Below are positions 1 through 39,904 of a DNA stretch of 40,216 bases, in pieces. The translations under genes were made by a program, and so were the position numbers. The stretch lies in the sequence record OZ035730.1. One strand, given 5' to 3'. Below the pieces are notes generated by a model that did not search any database, was not told the origin of the DNA, and saw nothing but the letters and a program-made list of their open reading frames with translations. This DNA is from Kayfunavirus CLBP1. How positions within the stretch are numbered: position 1 is the stretch's first letter; every line of letters begins with the position of its first letter.

Positions 1-29
1 TACAAAACGATTAAAGGAGGAGGTAAAAC

Positions 30-293
30 ATGACGCAGATGGACTTAGAGAAGTTCCTCTTAATGCTAGATACTGAACGTGCTCGACTCATGCTGCAAGA
101 CCTGCGGGATGACTCTAAGCGTTCACCTCAGCTTTACAACGCCATTGAGAAGCTACTGGCTCGTCACAACTTCGTGCTAAGCAAGGTGTCTGTTGACGAG
201 AAGACGCTCGCTGATATGGAGGCCCTGAACGCAGAGTACGATAAGGTGCTCTCCGCTACGGAAGATAATGACACTGGGTATGGAGTGCAATAA
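30..293 (+). CDS. Small terminase subunit (T7 gp18-like, DNA maturation protein A)
   Basis: 87-aa ORF with SD GGAGGAGG upstream; translation MTQMDLEKFLLMLDTERARLMLQDL...RSPQLYNAIEKLL resembles T7 gp18 as I recall it; lies between the holin and the spanins as in T7. Confidence 0.8.
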   Translation: MTQMDLEKFLLMLDTERARLMLQDLRDDSKRSPQLYNAIEKLLARHNFVLSKVSVDEKTLADMEALNAEYDKVLSATEDNDTGYGVQ

Positions 294-302
294 ATCTCTT
301 AA

Positions 303-352
303 GTGTTAGACTCAAGGTCATTACTGTATGTAGTGGCCTTTATGGTTAACAC
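303..352 (+). promoter_or_regulatory. RNase III-type processing hairpin (R18.5-like), copy 1 of 3
   Basis: Upper stem AAGGUCAUUAC (313-323) pairs with GUAGUGGCCUU (329-339) including two G.U pairs, loop UGUAU; lower stem GUGUUA (303-308) with UAACAC (347-352). Same element recurs at 9753 and 16839 with compensatory changes. Confidence 0.6.
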
Positions 353-403
353 TAACTAGTGGAGGAGACTCTACGTGAAATCTGATAAACCGGGAGGGCA
401 CCT

Positions 404-856
404 ATGCTCGAATTTCTAAAGAGAGCGGCTCCGTGGTTACTCGCAGCAGTGATGTTTGCTGGGGGCTACCACACCGCTAACAATAAGTGGGAGGCTAAGG
501 TCAATGCAGAATACACCTCGAATCTTAAGGCATCGGAGGATACAAGGCTTGCTGTCCAAGCTGAAGTCAACAAAGTGTCCAAACGGTTTCAGGACGAAAT
601 GTCCTCGCTGGAAGGCAGCACTGATAGGATTATTGCTGACCTTCAGTCTGACAATAAGCGGTTGCGCATCCGAGTCAAACCTACGAGTGGAACCACGCAA
701 AGTGACGGTCGATGCGTCATTGATGGTTACGCCGAACTTGACGAACGAGATGCTAAACGTCTTATCGCCATCGGACTGAAAGGGGACTCTTGGATTAAAG
801 CACTACAGGATACTATTCGAAAACTTCAACAAGACAAGGAGAAAGACAATGGGTAA
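404..856 (+). CDS. Rz-like i-spanin (T7 gp18.5-like)
   Basis: 150 aa; SD GGGAGGG upstream; N-terminal hydrophobic segment LKRAAPWLLAAVMFAGG; motifs LEGSTDRIIADLQSDNKRLRIRVK and ELDERDAKRLIA match remembered T7 gp18.5. Confidence 0.85.
   Translation: MLEFLKRAAPWLLAAVMFAGGYHTANNKWEAKVNAEYTSNLKASEDTRLAVQAEVNKVSKRFQDEMSSLEGSTDRIIADLQSDNKRLRIRVKPTSGTTQSDGRCVIDGYAELDERDAKRLIAIGLKGDSWIKALQDTIRKLQQDKEKDNG
504..779 (+). CDS. Rz1-like o-spanin lipoprotein (gp18.7-like) embedded in +1 frame of gp18.5
   Basis: Embedded ORF contains hydrophobic stretch ALIGLLLTFSLTISGC with lipobox-like LTISGC followed by ASE; first ATG at 504 has SD GGGAGG. Track ORF 456 starts on TTG; true start uncertain. Confidence 0.6.
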   Translation: MQNTPRILRHRRIQGLLSKLKSTKCPNGFRTKCPRWKAALIGLLLTFSLTISGCASESNLRVEPRKVTVDASLMVTPNLTNEMLNVLSPSD

Positions 857-1640
857 TATTATTACTTTGAAAACTGACGTAGTTTGGCATTTTGCTACTG
901 GTACACCCTCTGGACTGAAGAACGCATCCGGTCACTTGTTATCTGGTACAATATACGTGAAAGTCCCAGCTAACGCCGAGTCTACAAGGATTACACTAAG
1001 CGACGGTACGTCTGCTACTGGTAATTTCTCCGATGGTGGCGGCTGGCCTCTACAATCAGGCAGTGTACGTCTGGAAGTGGTTGGTAACACAGAAGACGAC
1101 TTCCTTATTCTTAAAGTCACCAAGCTGAATGACAGTGGCGTCGGACTTGTTAAGGTAGAGTATACTTATCGGGAGTCACGTCCTGTATCCCACGCTGAGT
1201 ATTCTCTGGATACCTTCAACTGGTCAGGAACCCAAGTGTGTGCGGCTGGTCAGTTCACTAACCTAATGACTCTACCTTTAGTGAAGGGAGTGGATAGCGG
1301 CGTCGTTACTATCTCCGAAGGAAAGATGCTGTTCCCAGCTAAAGAGGGACTCAGTAGTGTAAACTTCGTCGTTCGGTTCGCTGGTGAGTTCCCTACAGCC
1401 TCAGCTCATAAGTGGCGATTGCAGCTTCGTAGACCAGATAACACTACCCTATCTTCCGTGACGGACACAGATGACCAGCAGTCATTCACCATTCGTGAGG
1501 CAGCCATCCATAGCTACATAGCTAATACAGACGACCCGTTCGTTACTACTGGCATCATGCTTGGCATTGAAGTTACCGGGTCTGAGGACCTTACTCTGTC
1601 CTCCCTGACTGTTCGCGTTGACTGCATCTTTAACTCTTAA
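849..1640 (+). CDS. Hypothetical protein (263 aa), no T7 counterpart at this position
   Basis: ATG with SD AAGGAG 7 nt upstream, overlaps gp18.5 stop by 8 nt, ends 12 nt before the large terminase start; phage-like codon usage; Ser/Thr/Gly-rich, no TM segment, no recognisable motif. Confidence 0.65.
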
Positions 1641-1651
1641 GAGGTGAAGCA

Positions 1652-3415
1652 TTGAGTAAAGACTTAGTGGCGCGTCAGGCGCTAATGACTGCACGTATGA
1701 AGGCAGACTTCGTGTTCTTCCTGTTCGTCCTGTGGAAAGCTCTGTCACTCCCAGTCCCGACTCGCTGTCAGATTGACATGGCGAAGAAACTATCGGCTGG
1801 GGACAACAGGCGCTTCATCCTACAGGCGTTCCGTGGTATAGGGAAGTCCTTCATTACGTGTGCCTTCGTTGTCTGGAAGCTATGGAACAACCCAGACTTG
1901 AAGTTCATGATTGTGTCTGCCTCAAAGGAACGAGCCGATGCTAACTCCATCTTCATCAAGCGTATCATCGACCTCATGCCTCAGCTTCGGGAACTCAAAC
2001 CTAAGCAGGGACAGCGAGATGCGGTTATCAGCTTCGACGTTGGACCAGCCAAGCCAGACCACTCACCTTCGGTTAAGTCAGTTGGTATCACAGGTCAGTT
2101 GACTGGTAGTCGTGCTGACATCTTGATTGCCGATGACGTAGAGGTTCCGAACAACTCAGCGACTCAGGCTGCACGAGACCGTCTGTCAGAGCTTGTGAAA
2201 GAGTTCGACGCTATCCTGAAGCCGGGAGGTACAATCATCTATCTGGGTACTCCTCAGAACGAGATGACCTTGTATCGTGAGCTGGAAGGCCGTGGGTACA
2301 CCACTACTATCTGGCCTGCTCGTTATCCACGCGACAGGAAGGACTGGCAGTCTTACGGCGACCGTCTGGCACCGATGCTTCAGGCAGAGCTTGAAGAGGA
2401 CCCTGAGGCCTTCTACTGGCGTCCGACCGATGAAGTTCGCTTCGACGATACTGACCTGAAGGAACGTGAGCTGTCCTATGGTAAAGCTGGCTTCGCTCTA
2501 CAGTTCATGCTTAACCCGAACCTGAGTGATGCCGAGAAGTACCCTCTGAAGCTCCGTGACCTTATCGTAGCAGACTTGGACCCAGCATCCAGCCCAATGG
2601 TCTACCAATGGTTGCCTAACCCTCAGAACAAGCGTGAGGACGTTCCTAACGTTGGACTCATGGGCGACTCATACCACACGTACCAGACTGTAGGTTCTGC
2701 CTTCAGTTCGTACACCCAGAAGATTCTGGTCATTGACCCTAGCGGTCGTGGTAAGGATGAAACTGGTTATGCGGTACTGTATCAGCTCAACGGCTACATC
2801 TTCGCTATGGAAGTCGGAGGTATGCGTGGTGGTTATGAAGACTCTACTCTGGAAGCGCTAGCTAAGATTGGTCGTAAGTGGAAGGTCAACGAATACGTCA
2901 TTGAGGGTAACTTCGGTGATGGTATGTACCTTGAGCTATTCAAGCCTGTAGCGGCCCGTATCCATCCTGCGGCTGTAACTGAAGTGAAGAGTAAGGGTCA
3001 GAAAGAACTCCGCATCTGTGACGTTCTGGAGCCTATCATGGGGTCTCACAGACTTATCGTCAACGCTGCTGCTATCGTCCAAGACTATCAGACAGCCGCT
3101 GATAAGGATGGTGTTCGTAACCCTATCTACTCTCTCTTCTACCAGATGACACGTATCTCTCGTGAACGCGGAGCCTTGGCACACGATGACCGACTTGATG
3201 CGCTGGCTATCGGTGTACAGTTCTTCGTTGAGTCTATGGCTAAGGATGCCAACAAAGGCGAACGTGAAGTCACTGAGGAGTGGCTGGAGGAACAGATGGA
3301 GAACCCACGGAAAGGCTTCGAGTCCATCCACACTGAGTTCTGGGACAATGGGGTCCGGGTAACTCACAATACGGACGACGAGCTGGGACTAGGGGCTTAC
3401 GTTACGTTCCACTAG
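1652..3415 (+). CDS. Large terminase subunit (T7 gp19-like, DNA maturation protein B)
   Basis: 587 aa; TTG start with SD GAGGTG; long collinear match to T7 gp19 ([103 protein letters not shown]). Confidence 0.95.
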
Positions 3416-3505
3416 CTGAATAACTATAGGCGAAAACTGAATTAATAAGCAGTTAGTAACCTATAGTTACTACCAGTCTAACCTACTGTTTTACAAGGAG
3501 TTTGG

Positions 3506-3528
3506 ACTTAACTATCACTATAGGGAAG
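3506..3528 (+). promoter_or_regulatory. Phage RNAP promoter (phiOR-like)
   Basis: ACTTAACTATCACTATAGGGAAG, exact match to the core repeated 11 times; +1 G at 3523; position after gene 19 as T7 phiOR. Confidence 0.75.
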
Positions 3529-9732: not shown

Positions 9733-9755
9733 CTAAACTATCACTATAGGATTAG
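9733..9755 (+). promoter_or_regulatory. Phage RNAP promoter (phi1.1-like)
   Basis: CCTAAACTATCACTATAGGATTA; +1 G at 9750. Confidence 0.8.
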
Positions 9756-9798
9756 ACTCAAGGTCATGACTCAAAGTCGTGGCCTTCATGATTAACCC
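9753..9798 (+). promoter_or_regulatory. RNase III-type processing hairpin (R1.1-like), copy 2 of 3
   Basis: AAGGUCAUGAC (9761-9771) pairs with GUCGUGGCCUU (9777-9787), loop UCAAA; flanks TTAGACTC / CATGATTAACC shared with copies 1 and 3. Confidence 0.6.
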
Positions 9799-9828
9799 TA
9801 AATAAACACTACTGGAGATTTAACCGTA

Positions 9829-16671: not shown

Positions 16672-16836
16672 GTGTTAAAGAAACTTAAAGCTCGATACCA
16701 TCGGTTCATGTACAAATGGTGGAGCGAAGAAGCAACCTGCCTGTCGAACATTCTGGGAGACCAAAGGTTCGACTCTAAGGCATGGAAGAAAGCTAACCGG
16801 AAGTTTATGTATCACTTCTTGCGTACAGACTTCTAG
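16672..16836 (+). CDS. Hypothetical small basic protein (54 aa, GTG start)
   Basis: Hand-translated VLKKLKARYHRFMYKWWSEEATCLSNILGDQRFDSKAWKKANRKFMYHFLRTDF; GGAGG 9 nt upstream; non-ATG start. Confidence 0.25.
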   Translation: MLKKLKARYHRFMYKWWSEEATCLSNILGDQRFDSKAWKKANRKFMYHFLRTDF

Positions 16837-16838
16837 GT

Positions 16839-16882
16839 CTAGACTCAAGGTCATTCACATTGAGTGGCCTTTATGATTAGAC
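16839..16882 (+). promoter_or_regulatory. RNase III-type processing hairpin (R4.7-like), copy 3 of 3
   Basis: AAGGUCAUUCA (16847-16857) pairs with UGAGUGGCCUU (16861-16871), loop CAU; compensatory base-pair changes relative to copies 1 and 2. Confidence 0.6.
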
Positions 16883-36600: not shown

Positions 36601-37563
36601 TTAGATGCTGGACGTCAAGGCTTCCTGTCTGACATCGTGGAGCATAGCCTGACTGGTAGTAAGCGTAAGTTCGATGACCGATGGCTGAAGACCGCTGGTA
36701 TCTCTGACGAGCAGTGGAATGGAATTAAGTCCCTAATCCGTGAGTCAGTGACTCGTGGTCCAGACGGGAAGTATACCATCAAGGATAAGAAGGCGTTCAG
36801 TCAGGACCCAAGGGCTATGGACCTGTGGCGTATGGGCGACACCATCGCTGACGAAACGTTACTCCGTCCTCATAAGCTGAGCAACATGGACGCCAAGGCT
36901 TATGGTCCTCTGGCTAAGACTGTCCTTCAGTTTAAGAACTTCGTCATCAAGTCCATCAATGGGCGTACCATGCGAACCTTCTATAACGCCACGAAGAACA
37001 ACCGAGCGATGGATGCTGCTCTGTCCACTGTGATGTCTATGGGTCTTGCTGGTATCTACTACATGGCTCAGGCACACATCAAGGCTTACGCTATGCAGGA
37101 TGGTCGTGACCGTGAGTACCTGAAGCAGGCCCTGAACCCTACGATGATTGGCTATGCCGCTCTGTCCCGTAGCTCCCACTTGGGTGGACCACTTGGGGTC
37201 GCTAACATTCTTGGTGGTATCGCTGGGTATGAGGACACTAAGATGCTCCGTTCATCTATCCTGCCCCGTTCGCCTACAGAGAAGCCTGAACGTGCCATCG
37301 CGTATGGTGCAGCTACAAGTGACCCTGTGATGAATGTTGTTGGTAACTTCTTGGAGCAGGTTCCAGCTTTCGGATATGCTGCTAACGTTGGCGCTTCGGC
37401 TTACAACTTGGCTGGCTACCTCAAGGCTGATACTCGTGTCAACGAGCGTGACTACATGACCGGGATGTATAATACGTTCCGTGAACTGGTTCCGAACGAC
37501 CCAATTACCCAGAAGCTGTTGCTTGGAACGTTTGAGGAGCAAGGTATCCACATCAAGGACTAA
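33676..37563 (+). CDS. Internal core protein D (T7 gp16-like, N-terminal lytic transglycosylase-type domain)
   Basis: 1295 aa; N-terminal segment GIRNNNPGNIR...AISFHETG; size and position as T7 gp16. Confidence 0.95.
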   Translation: MATRGIRNNNPGNIRVSKDQWEGMTGDDGAFVTFDSPESGVRALGKNLLSYGRQGYDSIEKIINRWAPPNENDTKAYIDSVVAATGIPATQSLDLSDPDTLSSLAQAISFHETGSRYDPEVYQKGVARALNGISPKTPPVSANVFDALTEGLKSKPKVSLGENLPTAAGLNIEGQAPEAPNESFGEMFYKATGETMQEREERSTWFGFGSATEAEVKNSMVGVAIRAGQTEDSLDVIGDVFNPTRWNNHKWSREELDQIRNAGVLPQYYGVITGGSPQNLTELINLALENQKLDAEKSKAGTGAQLAAGVIGAGVDPLTYVPIAGQVGKGGKLVNKMFTVAAQSGALAGASELARTSVAGGDAYVAEAIMGGALFGGGMTAIGDAIGKALGKSTNEFAGPATRLEARETARNVDGQDLSRLPIQEGEQTFSHQGVKFADVPNEPGSVRLEDGSILIGENPLNPKTRQVFDEVIEPERAAAGVNLGGLTEIGLKLLRSENPEIRGVAADLVRSPTGMQSGASGKIGTTASDVFERLRAVDHRFYNDIDDAVTEALKDPYFQTAFWRDSGAFRQDIYQRVSMAIEDGSGNLKSELTPGELKVYDLLKNQFDAKREMMENPAMFGRPDAQSIFPGSRFKGTYVPHVYSKQMKELYIKELGSPEALQEAIKKSWLTSYASRPEVKKRVDEALLEADPTLTPEGLAAAVDKYANDKAYGISHTEQFERSSVMEENINGLVGLENNSFLEARNLFDSDMSIVLPNGQTFSVNNLREWDMDKIVPAYNRRVNGDIAIMAGTGKTTKEMKDLVETMMNKAGDDGKLKGEVSTLRDTLKILTGRARRDGADDAAFATVMRTMTDLSFFAKNAYMGVQNLTEIGGMLARGNVRALLHGVPIFRDLAFRNKKVGASEIKDLHNVIFGKELDDSIRPSKQDVIDRLRAYSALSKPTATALGSAKYYTGELAVRSPFTKVLNGTTNYLLDAGRQGFLSDIVEHSLTGSKRKFDDRWLKTAGISDEQWNGIKSLIRESVTRGPDGKYTIKDKKAFSQDPRAMDLWRMGDTIADETLLRPHKLSNMDAKAYGPLAKTVLQFKNFVIKSINGRTMRTFYNATKNNRAMDAALSTVMSMGLAGIYYMAQAHIKAYAMQDGRDREYLKQALNPTMIGYAALSRSSHLGGPLGVANILGGIAGYEDTKMLRSSILPRSPTEKPERAIAYGAATSDPVMNVVGNFLEQVPAFGYAANVGASAYNLAGYLKADTRVNERDYMTGMYNTFRELVPNDPITQKLLLGTFEEQGIHIKD

Positions 37564-37581
37564 ACTATCACTATAGGAAAC
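37559..37581 (+). promoter_or_regulatory. Phage RNAP promoter (phi17-like)
   Basis: ACTAAACTATCACTATAGGAAAC; overlaps gp16 3' end; +1 G at 37576. Confidence 0.8.
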
Positions 37582-37627: not shown

Positions 37628-39904
37628 ATGTCCACGATTACACAATTCCCTTCAGGAAACACTCAGTACAGGATTGAGTTCGACTACCTAGCCAGAACGT
37701 TTGTTGTTGTTACGCTGGTGAATAGCTCTAACCCTACCCTTAACCGTGTACTGGAAGTTGGTCGAGATTACCGATTCCTTAATCCAACGATGATTGAGAT
37801 GTTGGTTGACCAATCAGGTTTCGACATCGTTCGTATTCACCGTCAGACTGGAACTGACTTAGTGGTAGACTTCAGGAATGGCTCAGTGTTGACAGCTAGC
37901 GACCTGACCAATGCAGAGCTTCAGGCTATCCATATTGCAGAAGAAGGTCGAGACCAAACGGTTGACTTAGCGAAGGAATATGCCGATGCTGCTGGTGACT
38001 CTGCTGGCAACGCTAAGGATAGCGAGGACGAAGCACGACGAATCGCTGAGAGTATCAAGGCAGCTGGTCGAATTGGCTATATTACCCGTCGCTCCTTCGA
38101 GAAAGGCTTCAACGTTACAACATGGAACGAGGTCCTGTTATGGGAAGAGGATGGTGAGTATTACCGCTGGGATGGTACGCTTCCAAAGAACGTTCCTGCT
38201 GGTTCAACTCCTAACACCGCTGGGGGCATTGGTTTAGGTGCGTGGGTTGGCGTTGGTGATGCATCATTGCGCAGCAATTTATCAGAAAATGATGGCGCCT
38301 TGATAGTAGGTGGAGCTATTCTTGAATGCCAAACGGTAGCACAGGCGCAAGAGATATCTGGTTTAACGGAAGGTCGAAAGGTAAGAACATACTATTATAA
38401 TGTCCCAGTTGTAACAGATTGGGTGTTCACCCCCACCGCGCCGTCCGGTGGGGTTTTCTACATTCCCGCTGTCGGTGGTTACTTGATATTAATGACGCCT
38501 AACTTCGCTTCCGCTGGCATTATTGAAGGTGAATATGTTCCGCTAAACGCCGCACATAACCGTAATGTAATTCAAAAACTGGTAAGAGACACAAGATTCA
38601 GTAAATTTGAATATGGAGCAACAGGTACTTTTTATGTTCTCGGCTCTATTCATCCATTACGAGATAATATAGAAATACACCACGAAGCTGGGGTTACAGT
38701 TATGGGGCGTTACGATGACCCCACGGTAGGTCCAGAAATTATGGGGTTAAACTCCGGCGGTATGTGGTCCTTTGCACACTTTCTCAACCCTGATGCAACG
38801 GTTTGGGATGACAATAACTACACAATTACAGCTGTTATGAAAAATGTTACCTACGTTCTTAACGGAAAGATAGGTACAGAATATAACTCCATTCATTCTA
38901 AACCGCACAACAACAACCCTATTGGTTTCTTTACTTGTGAAAACTGTAGCGTTGTCGGCTCTGGCGGGGTTATTGGGTCTGACCACAGAGGCATTAACGT
39001 AGATGGTGCAGGGGATAATTGCCGTATAGATATCGGGTACGCTACAGGAACCAGCAACAACCCGATTCAAATGAAAATAAACGCTGAACGCTACGCTTTT
39101 GTTAAAGTTGGTGCGGTCTATGGGGTTAAGTTTGATGGCGGTCAAACAAAGGCTGTGGTGTGGTGCGGCGGTGGGCGTGTTGATGTAGAAGTCGGTAACT
39201 ACAGGTGGGATGGGGTGAATAAACCAATCCTCGCTTACGGCAACGGTTGCCAGGAAATAACTTTAAAGGCTGGCATAATATCCGGCGTTTCGCAATTAAT
39301 ACGTCAGTACAATACCCCTGTAGCTAGAGTTCTGTCAGCATGGGTTAATAATACAGACTCTCTCATAAACAAAGCAGAAGATTCTGACAAGGAAGGTGTG
39401 ACCAAGATTTCTGAGATTCGAGGTGTGAACGCCGTCGACACGGTACTAACTAGCGCATTCTATGATGAAACGAAATTAGCGAATCAAGATGTTGTTACTA
39501 TAACCGGAAACGATTTCAGAAACGCTGGACCATCATTCCTTTACTTTAAAGGTAAAACAGCTGGTGGTGCTATTAGGTTGTGGAACGTTAATAACAACCT
39601 CGACCCTGTAGGTCTTGCGGACCTTTCAGACTGGAATATTTTGCTGGGGCAAAGTGTCGTTACTACAGTTTCAGCAACTTCTTTCACGTACACTATGTCC
39701 CGTAGATATGAAAATATCACAATTGCCGTAACGGAATCCGCCACCCTACGGTATGTTACGGTTAGCTTACGAGCGCACCTGTCGTCGTCAACTACGGCGT
39801 CATACATAGTCGGCGGCACGTCTATGACTGTCTCGAGGTCCGGCGATATTTTTACTTTTACGGTTAACTCCGGAACTATAAATTTTTACGTATTACATAA
39901 CTAA
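37628..39904 (+). CDS. Tail fibre / tailspike: gp17-like N-terminal anchor plus distinct C-terminal domain
   Basis: First ~150 aa resemble T7 gp17 N-terminus ([42 protein letters not shown]); from about 38270 the DNA becomes AT-rich and the protein is Gly/Asn/Val/Thr-rich and unlike T7 gp17. Confidence 0.85.

Follow-up and report, generated by a model that had tools for sequence, protein, structure and literature searches.

Homotrimeric knobs with the TNF/C1q-like fold sit at the distal tips of phage fibres and spikes. C1q and BclA heads work as trimers behind collagen stalks, the Sf6 knob sits on top of the long trimeric coiled-coil needle gp26, which plugs the tail, and glycan binding at the trimer interface is known from TNF-like bacterial lectins, of which BC2L-C and PLTL bind histo-blood-group sugars. 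Gene 18.8 of Kayfunavirus CLBP1 (sequence record OZ035730.1), at positions 849..1640 on the + strand of the window, appears to encode an unusual relative of these proteins. The window is the whole 40,216-nucleotide stretch that was analyzed, namely the CLB_P1 genome rotated so that gene 18 comes first. Structure modelling and homologue searches suggest that gene 18.8 is a rare, mosaic accessory cassette and that its product, gp18.8, is a stalk-less TNF/C1q-like knob protein, an unusual version of a known sort of phage surface module and most likely a modular accessory virion protein. Escherichia phage CLB_P1 (Autographiviridae, Studiervirinae, Kayfunavirus; GenBank KC109329.1) serves as a model for phage therapy of enteroaggregative O104:H4 E. 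coli, with poor performance in biofilms and the mouse gut (PMC3594211). If gp18.8 is an optional surface adhesin, it could affect CLB_P1 adsorption, retention or host range. Current understanding is not overturned by these results.

An AlphaFold2 model of gp18.8 built with a 41-sequence alignment has a mean predicted local distance difference test score (pLDDT) of 92.4 and a predicted template modelling (TM) score of 0.59, the latter because the packing of the domains is uncertain; the single-sequence model (pLDDT 48) is unusable. The model consists of two all-beta domains, residues 1-~115 and ~117-263. The N-terminal domain (aa 1-116; 849..1196, + strand) is predicted to hold ~9 strands, and the C-terminal domain (aa 117-263; 1197..1637, + strand), which coincides with PHROG 17779, is modelled as a TNF/C1q-like jelly-roll knob. 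A fold search on a predicted structure, as proposed in an initial annotation of this DNA, was run with Foldseek and places the C-terminal half of the model among TNF/C1q-like knobs. The matches are phage knobs plus the TNF-like lectins BC2L-C and PLTL (lectins E ~1e-4, TM-score to target 0.64-0.70), and in BFVD they are phage proteins named "C1q domain containing", "BclA protein" and "Sf6-type tail needle knob". The rigid alignments cover 112-149 residues, and the fold matches therefore belong to the C-terminal domain, the only one long enough. At the level of fold, this 147-residue domain is assigned to the TNF/C1q-like knobs with high confidence from the model, in which a beta jelly roll of the ~130-150-residue class can be superimposed on the domains of TNF, C1q or phage knobs.

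The likeness is one of fold. The gp18.8 sequence has zero matches in Pfam (E <= 1), NCBIfam, PADLOC and PDB, in line with the initial annotation, which had recognized no motif; specifically, no Pfam C1q, TNF or Sf6-type needle-knob family is matched at this threshold, and PDB holds no sequence relative by single sequence or by 41-sequence profile. The sole library match is PHROG 17779 ("unknown function"; aa 117-262, E 2.3e-22), whose model spans only the C-terminal domain; this PHROG carries no annotation and can now be linked, through the predicted structure, to the TNF/C1q knob fold. The Sf6/HS1 tail-needle knob (PDB 3RWN, 4K6B) is matched at fold level with ~14-16% identity and no Pfam or sequence relationship. 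In place of a coiled-coil needle, gp18.8 has a globular N-terminal beta domain. T7-like phages are not known to have a tail needle of the Sf6 kind. Unlike C1q/BclA-type collagen-plus-head proteins and the PRD1 spike P5, gp18.8 has no collagen repeats and no Pfam C1q/TNF match, and its fold-level likeness to the N-terminal domain of BC2L-C and to Photorhabdus PLTL, at 6-7% identity, is a functional analogy only.

Homologues of gp18.8 are few. An exhaustive search of 1.84 billion representatives, with clusters drawn at 50% identity, yields only 53 homologue clusters; a word-indexed search, profile queries included, retrieves close relatives only, and scans of the IMG/VR and JGI metagenomes with gp18.8 and clusters P0029, P0036 and P0038 return no matches. 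Five of the 53 clusters (P0011, P0029, P0036, P0038 and P0060) align across both domains, at 22-48% identity. All relatives tested match PHROG 17779 strongly, and the C-terminal domain always lies at their extreme C-terminus; this distal domain, common to gp18.8 and fibre proteins, is homologous to the C-termini of collagen-like, tail-fibre-like and decoration-type phage proteins. Collagen-like G-X-Y stalks are present in P0009 (PF01391), P0021-24, P0034, P0048, P0050 and P0056, often together with a "KISEMP...ELVPVVQ" type N-terminus, which we take to be typical of fibre proteins, and these stalks suggest that the C-terminal domain works as a trimer in those proteins. Neither a G-X-Y nor a heptad stalk precedes the knob in the sequence or model of gp18.8, in contrast to P0009. 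Elsewhere, the domain occurs with Phage_fiber_rpt or with PHROGs for tail fibre and long-tail-fibre distal subunit (P0043, P0051, P0017, P0024, P0033), or with a GDSL esterase partner that matches the PHROG "head decoration" (P0016, Enterobacter prophages). The carrier protein of N4-like Ithacavirus shares its N-terminal 45 aa with an adjoining protein resembling the phi29 head fibre gp8.5 (51% identity, E 9e-16), and epsilon15-like phages and prophages carry the gene in their head module, with portal/Bbp19 on one side and the prohead peptidase, major capsid protein and cement genes on the other. All of these are contexts of a particle-surface display module, used on tails in some phages and probably on heads in others, and in at least five phage lineages the C-terminal module has been exchanged among tail fibres, head-fibre-like proteins and decoration-type proteins.

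A comparable exchange is seen with T4 Hoc-like Ig proteins, in that the TNF-like C-terminal domain of Klebsiella phage FBKp16 replaces a Hoc-like Ig domain on a common anchor. Four consecutive FBKp16 paralogues (L023 12918-14011, L007 13-729) have in common an N-domain of ~85 aa; this anchor stands alone in two of them, is followed by a Hoc-like Ig domain in another, and by the TNF-like C-terminal domain in the remaining one. This N-domain corresponds to PHROG 2725, oddly labelled 'acetyl-CoA acetyltransferase', and the paralogues look like a modular virion-decoration family encoded after the terminase in SP6-like phages. Those phages have only a short (328-aa) gp17-like adaptor. Modular decoration or display proteins of phages are variably present and can be dispensed with, as is the case for gp18.8, which has neither the FBKp16 nor the Ithacavirus anchor.

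The N-terminal domain of gp18.8 is an orphan. It is confined to the two-domain subfamily (EPr2, P0029, P0036, P0038, P0060), within which W13, G28, G33, P40 and G99 are invariant. Its profile gives only insignificant matches in PDB, to designed Ig and cupin proteins, and none in Pfam. Comparison of the N-terminal with the C-terminal domain by hhalign yields a probability of 0.4%, so that no tandem duplication is detectable within gp18.8, and a profile search finds no paralogue of either domain elsewhere in the genome. In the C-terminal domain, R176, R194, R195, R216, D229, G235 and N242 are near-invariant among the 41 sequences; the conservation of R176, R194, R195, R216 and D229 suggests a conserved interface or ligand.

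We give about an even chance to the proposal that gp18.8 is a late, trimeric, virion-displayed accessory adhesin. Under this proposal, a soluble, two-domain, all-beta protein with no export signal would be synthesized late, would trimerize through its TNF-like C-terminal domain, and would dock on the CLB_P1 capsid or tail through the orphan N-terminal domain. Once displayed, it might provide auxiliary binding, as an adhesin or lectin, to a glycan on the cell surface or in the environment; this would benefit the phage in certain hosts or niches but would not be needed for plaque growth. Sequence analysis detects neither a signal peptide nor a transmembrane segment, and gp18.8 should thus reach the cell exterior only on the particle or at lysis. 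The maximal Kyte-Doolittle mean over 19 residues is 1.06, so that no transmembrane segment is expected, and S+T+G make up 30.4% of residues; both values bear out an earlier description of the protein as Ser/Thr/Gly-rich and free of transmembrane segments. A more far-reaching conjecture, and one we consider improbable, is that the family forms a new class of stalk-less trimeric TNF-like lectins, capsid-displayed cassettes interchangeable with Hoc-like Ig domains and swapped among tailed phages; on a gut coliphage such as CLB_P1, such a lectin would bind mucosal or bacterial glycans and tune gut retention rather than host range as such.

Several lines of evidence indicate that gene 18.8 is a real gene under purifying selection. 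Against the 87%-identical P762 allele, the ratio of nonsynonymous to synonymous divergence (dN/dS) is 0.09 (dN 0.079, dS 0.85), and both halves of the gene give similarly low ratios. The open reading frame (ORF) of 263 aa exceeds the ~196 aa reached by random-frame ORFs within the window. Taken with the homologues in 53 clusters, these values argue that the ORF is not a chance occurrence. In addition, ~20 near-identical full-length copies are found on independent 38-40-kb assemblies.

The gene nevertheless is rare. A blastn survey of phage records with positions 404-2400 as query matches 1355 records, only three of which cover >= 80% of the query, and gene 18.8 is not part of the conserved T7-group (Studiervirinae) set at this locus in those records. 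In the closest Kayfunavirus records among the matches listed (flanks ~95-97% identical), the flanks abut, spanning 1195 rather than 1997 nt, and in Citrobacter phage SH3, whose junction was inspected, the spanin stop overlaps the large terminase (TerL) start directly with no insert. The statement in the initial annotation that T7 has gene 19 directly after 18.5/18.7 thus holds for these close relatives, and its alternative, a known T7-family protein conserved at the locus, is not what the group exhibits. Within the phage collection, full-length homologues occur in CLB_P1, P762 and Providencia phage EPr2 alone. Only four phage records carry gene 18.8, and the Bas105 copy is internally deleted by an in-frame loss of 369 nt between two CCCAGCTAA repeats, a 9-nt direct repeat with copies at 965..973 and 1334..1342 (+ strand) marking the left and right ends of the deletion. 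Metagenomic contig L018 has a 1-nt deletion at codon 8. The scarcity of the gene, the Bas105 deletion and the L018 frameshift show that gene 18.8 is dispensable for propagation.

Comparison of the 18.5-19 junction among related phages, also proposed at the outset, shows a slot left vacant in most Kayfunavirus records and taken up by unrelated small ORFs in some. EcoDS1 has an unrelated 53-aa ORF in the slot (L015 644-805), and Bas105 has its deleted 18.8 plus an unrelated 56-aa ORF (L004 1002-1607). These ORFs point to the 18.5/19 junction as a variable accessory-gene slot. The cassette boundaries coincide exactly with a Shine-Dalgarno (SD) motif of the form AAGGAG(G), with AAGGAG on the left and the gene 19 SD on the right. 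In relatives without an insert, the AAGGAG at 836..841 is itself the gene 19 SD; the right-hand SD for gene 19 is re-created as AAGAGGTGA, and as AAGGAGGTGA in other carriers. The insert, flanked by SD-like AAGGAG/AAGAGG motifs, is placed exactly between the gene 19 SD and start codon, and the SD-bracketed junction can be regarded as a cassette slot in T7-like phages.

Within this slot the alleles have diverged far more than their surroundings. Relative to EPr2, amino acid identity is 98.8% for TerL and 97.9% for Rz vs 48.9% for gp18.8, and in the P762 comparison dS is 0.85 in gene 18.8 vs 0.04 and 0.21 in the flanks. Two distant homologues occupy the same position: P0060 (T7-like contig L009, 23% identity) is flanked by genes for an Rz-like spanin and a T7-type TerL, and P0036 (25% identity) lies in the same spanin-to-TerL slot of a 38.9-kb T7-like contig (L021) whose other products include ocr and a T7-type RNA polymerase. 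These two contigs are 88% identical in TerL vs 36.5% in gp18.8. Divergence so discordant with the flanks, at low dN/dS, points to deeply diverged alleles exchanged by recombination. Gene 18.8 is an old, mosaic resident of the slot, with alleles much older and more divergent than the flanks, and such allelic mosaicism is a familiar pattern that is typical of host-interaction modules.

A number of observations weigh against a virion-displayed adhesin. The fold assignment rests on a predicted model, PDB has no entry with a sequence relative, and literature searches covering CLB_P1, ZPAH14, FBKp16, the FSL SP-058/076 proteomics and TNF-like head fibres turned up no proteomics or cryo-EM for any family member and no mention of the gene family. 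gp18.8 has neither a stalk nor a recognizable virion-docking domain, and Pfam, PDB and own-genome profile searches reveal no known docking N-terminal domain such as PF03906 (Phage_T7_tail). The N-terminal domain has no homologue outside its subfamily and no paralogue in the genome. Between CLB_P1 and EPr2 it is 47% identical vs ~50% for the C-terminal domain, which is unusual for an anchor when the virion proteins are probably near-identical. Gene 18.8 also lies outside the structural block (6.7-17), its relatives are repeatedly found beside lysis genes across lineages and could have a non-structural role, and the conserved Arg/Asp residues, retained across hosts, argue against a hypervariable host-specific receptor site. 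Some of these points would suit a soluble lectin with no structural role, active at lysis or later, which builds up late in the cytoplasm, is freed or exposed on envelope breach, binds an envelope component (peptidoglycan, lipopolysaccharide core or a receptor on debris), and either aids or modulates lysis or prevents progeny from becoming trapped on debris. Genes for the C-terminal domain recur beside lysis cassettes in unrelated phages: after the spanins in CLB_P1, after the endolysin and spanin in Ithacavirus, adjoining the holin and endolysin in pSb-1, three small genes upstream of D-Ala-D-Ala carboxypeptidase and CwlJ in Aeromonas ZPAH14, and ahead of an M15 peptidase in FBKp16. The conserved Arg/Asp set would fit a conserved anionic ligand, and neither Pfam nor the N-terminal profile reveals a virion-docking domain. 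However, no lysis-protein family is matched, and relatives join the domain to collagen stalks, tail-fibre repeats and decoration-type anchors, which are hallmarks of particle attachment. The borders of lysis cassettes commonly take up accessory genes and adjoin tail-fibre genes, so the adjacency may be incidental. A lysis lectin is therefore judged unlikely.

Optional, fast-diverging, mosaic cassettes of T7-like phages are often counter-defence or host-modulating genes, and the excess divergence of gene 18.8 over its flanks and its orphan N-terminal domain would also be compatible with an intracellular host-takeover or anti-defence protein that uses beta-sandwich folds and has no extracellular role. 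Such a function is very unlikely here: host-takeover functions cluster in the early and middle genes of T7-like phages whereas gene 18.8 is late and in the packaging/lysis unit, PADLOC gives no match, and the C-terminal homologues are fibre termini with a TNF/C1q fold that is typically extracellular or surface-displayed. It is less probable still that the gene is a decaying remnant without function in CLB_P1. Its lack in most relatives, the 369-nt internal deletion of Bas105 and the codon 8 frameshift of contig L018 would be expected of decay, but the frame is intact, dN/dS stays at 0.09 over a dS of 0.85, the ~20 near-identical copies on independent ~40-kb assemblies are full length, and the two-domain architecture is kept in the same slot at 23-27% identity. 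The selection analysis (dN/dS 0.09) led to rejection of the pseudogene reading. Least credible of all is the GenBank label. KC109329.1 annotates the gene (tblastn match 100%) as CLBP1_18.8 "putative protease", with the note 'similar to E. coli E2348/69 predicted protease YP_002330251', and a copied 'protease' label occurs in Salmonella phage S5; Pfam and NCBIfam contain no matching peptidase family, the predicted fold is a TNF/C1q-like jelly roll and not that of a protease, and the E2348/69 homologue is now a 'hypothetical protein' in RefSeq. With no peptidase signature, a non-protease predicted fold and the origin of the label traced, a protease was rejected, and gene 18.8 is mislabelled in public records.

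The E2348/69 homologue is the source of the 'protease' mis-annotation passed to CLB_P1. It belongs to an epsilon15/BPP-1-like prophage of this enteropathogenic E. coli (EPEC) strain (L013 5001-5546), comprises the C-terminal domain only, and is 97.6% identical in nucleotide sequence to Salmonella phage PAT1. The gene is found between a Bbp19-family gene and the prohead peptidase, directly upstream of the latter, and this adjacency to a true prohead peptidase probably explains the old label.

Gene 18.8 starts with ATG and runs for 263 codons to a TAA stop at 1638-1640. Its SD, AAGGAG (836..841, + strand), lies 7 nt 5' of the ATG within the 3' end of gene 18.5, which encodes an Rz-like i-spanin by PHROGs (404..856, + strand) and overlaps the 18.8 ATG with its stop by 8 nt (849-856). 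The o-spanin gene 18.7 (~504-779, + strand) is embedded in gene 18.5. Downstream, gene 19, the large terminase by PHROGs (1652..3415, + strand), begins with TTG 11 nt after gene 18.8, and its SD, GAGGTGA (1641..1647, + strand), forms the right boundary of the cassette; the small terminase (PHROGs) occupies 30-293. The apparent TTG start at 1652 is the same in GenBank, and the start region is near-invariant among the Kayfunavirus relatives compared. The coordinates, SD and 8-nt overlap given in the initial annotation were all reproduced, and its view that the gene is an addition to the T7 plan, lying within a late lysis-packaging unit, agrees with a spanin upstream and a terminase downstream.

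A phage-promoter-like element with the consensus CTAAACTATCACTATAGGRA occurs in 11 copies in the window. The copies, CTAAACTATCACTATAGG(G/A)A, are each ~25 nt long and start at 3502, 6652, 9728, 11774, 12726, 14850, 21760, 24581, 25590, 30272 and 37555; these elements are very probably phage RNA-polymerase promoters that define transcription units. In true genome order, the nearest element 5' of gene 18.8 is at 37555..37579 (+ strand), ahead of gene 17, and the next, at 3502-3526, lies 3' of gene 19. No + strand sigma70-like promoter and no intrinsic terminator are found within positions 1-3500. This layout would make gene 18.8 a late gene, on an 18.5-18.7-18.8-19 message, and the gene should be in the late phi17 transcription unit; its translation is probably coupled to that of 18.5. 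A stable hairpin at 294..358 (+ strand; -24.8 kcal/mol over 290-365, z -4.2) lies 5' of the 18.5-18.8-19 message and resembles an RNase III processing site preceding 18.5, presumably comparable to T7 R18.5. Intergenic hairpins with the core TAGACTCAAGGTCAT are present at 294-358, 9740-9804 and 16834-16854 and resemble the RNase III sites of T7-like late and middle mRNAs.

The window differs from KC109329.1 by two 1-nt deletions and one substitution, all within the tail-fibre region. The deletions change A6 to A5 and GGTT to GGT near 38573 and 38625, and the substitution is at 38987. Positions 37628-39904 of the window contain a single tail-fibre/tailspike ORF of 758 aa, where KC109329.1 annotates gp17 (325 aa) and gp17.1 (430 aa). 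The receptor-binding protein (RBP) of CLB_P1 has been described as exceptional, 'split in two separate proteins' (PMC10408124); this split could have arisen from sequencing errors in the original record.

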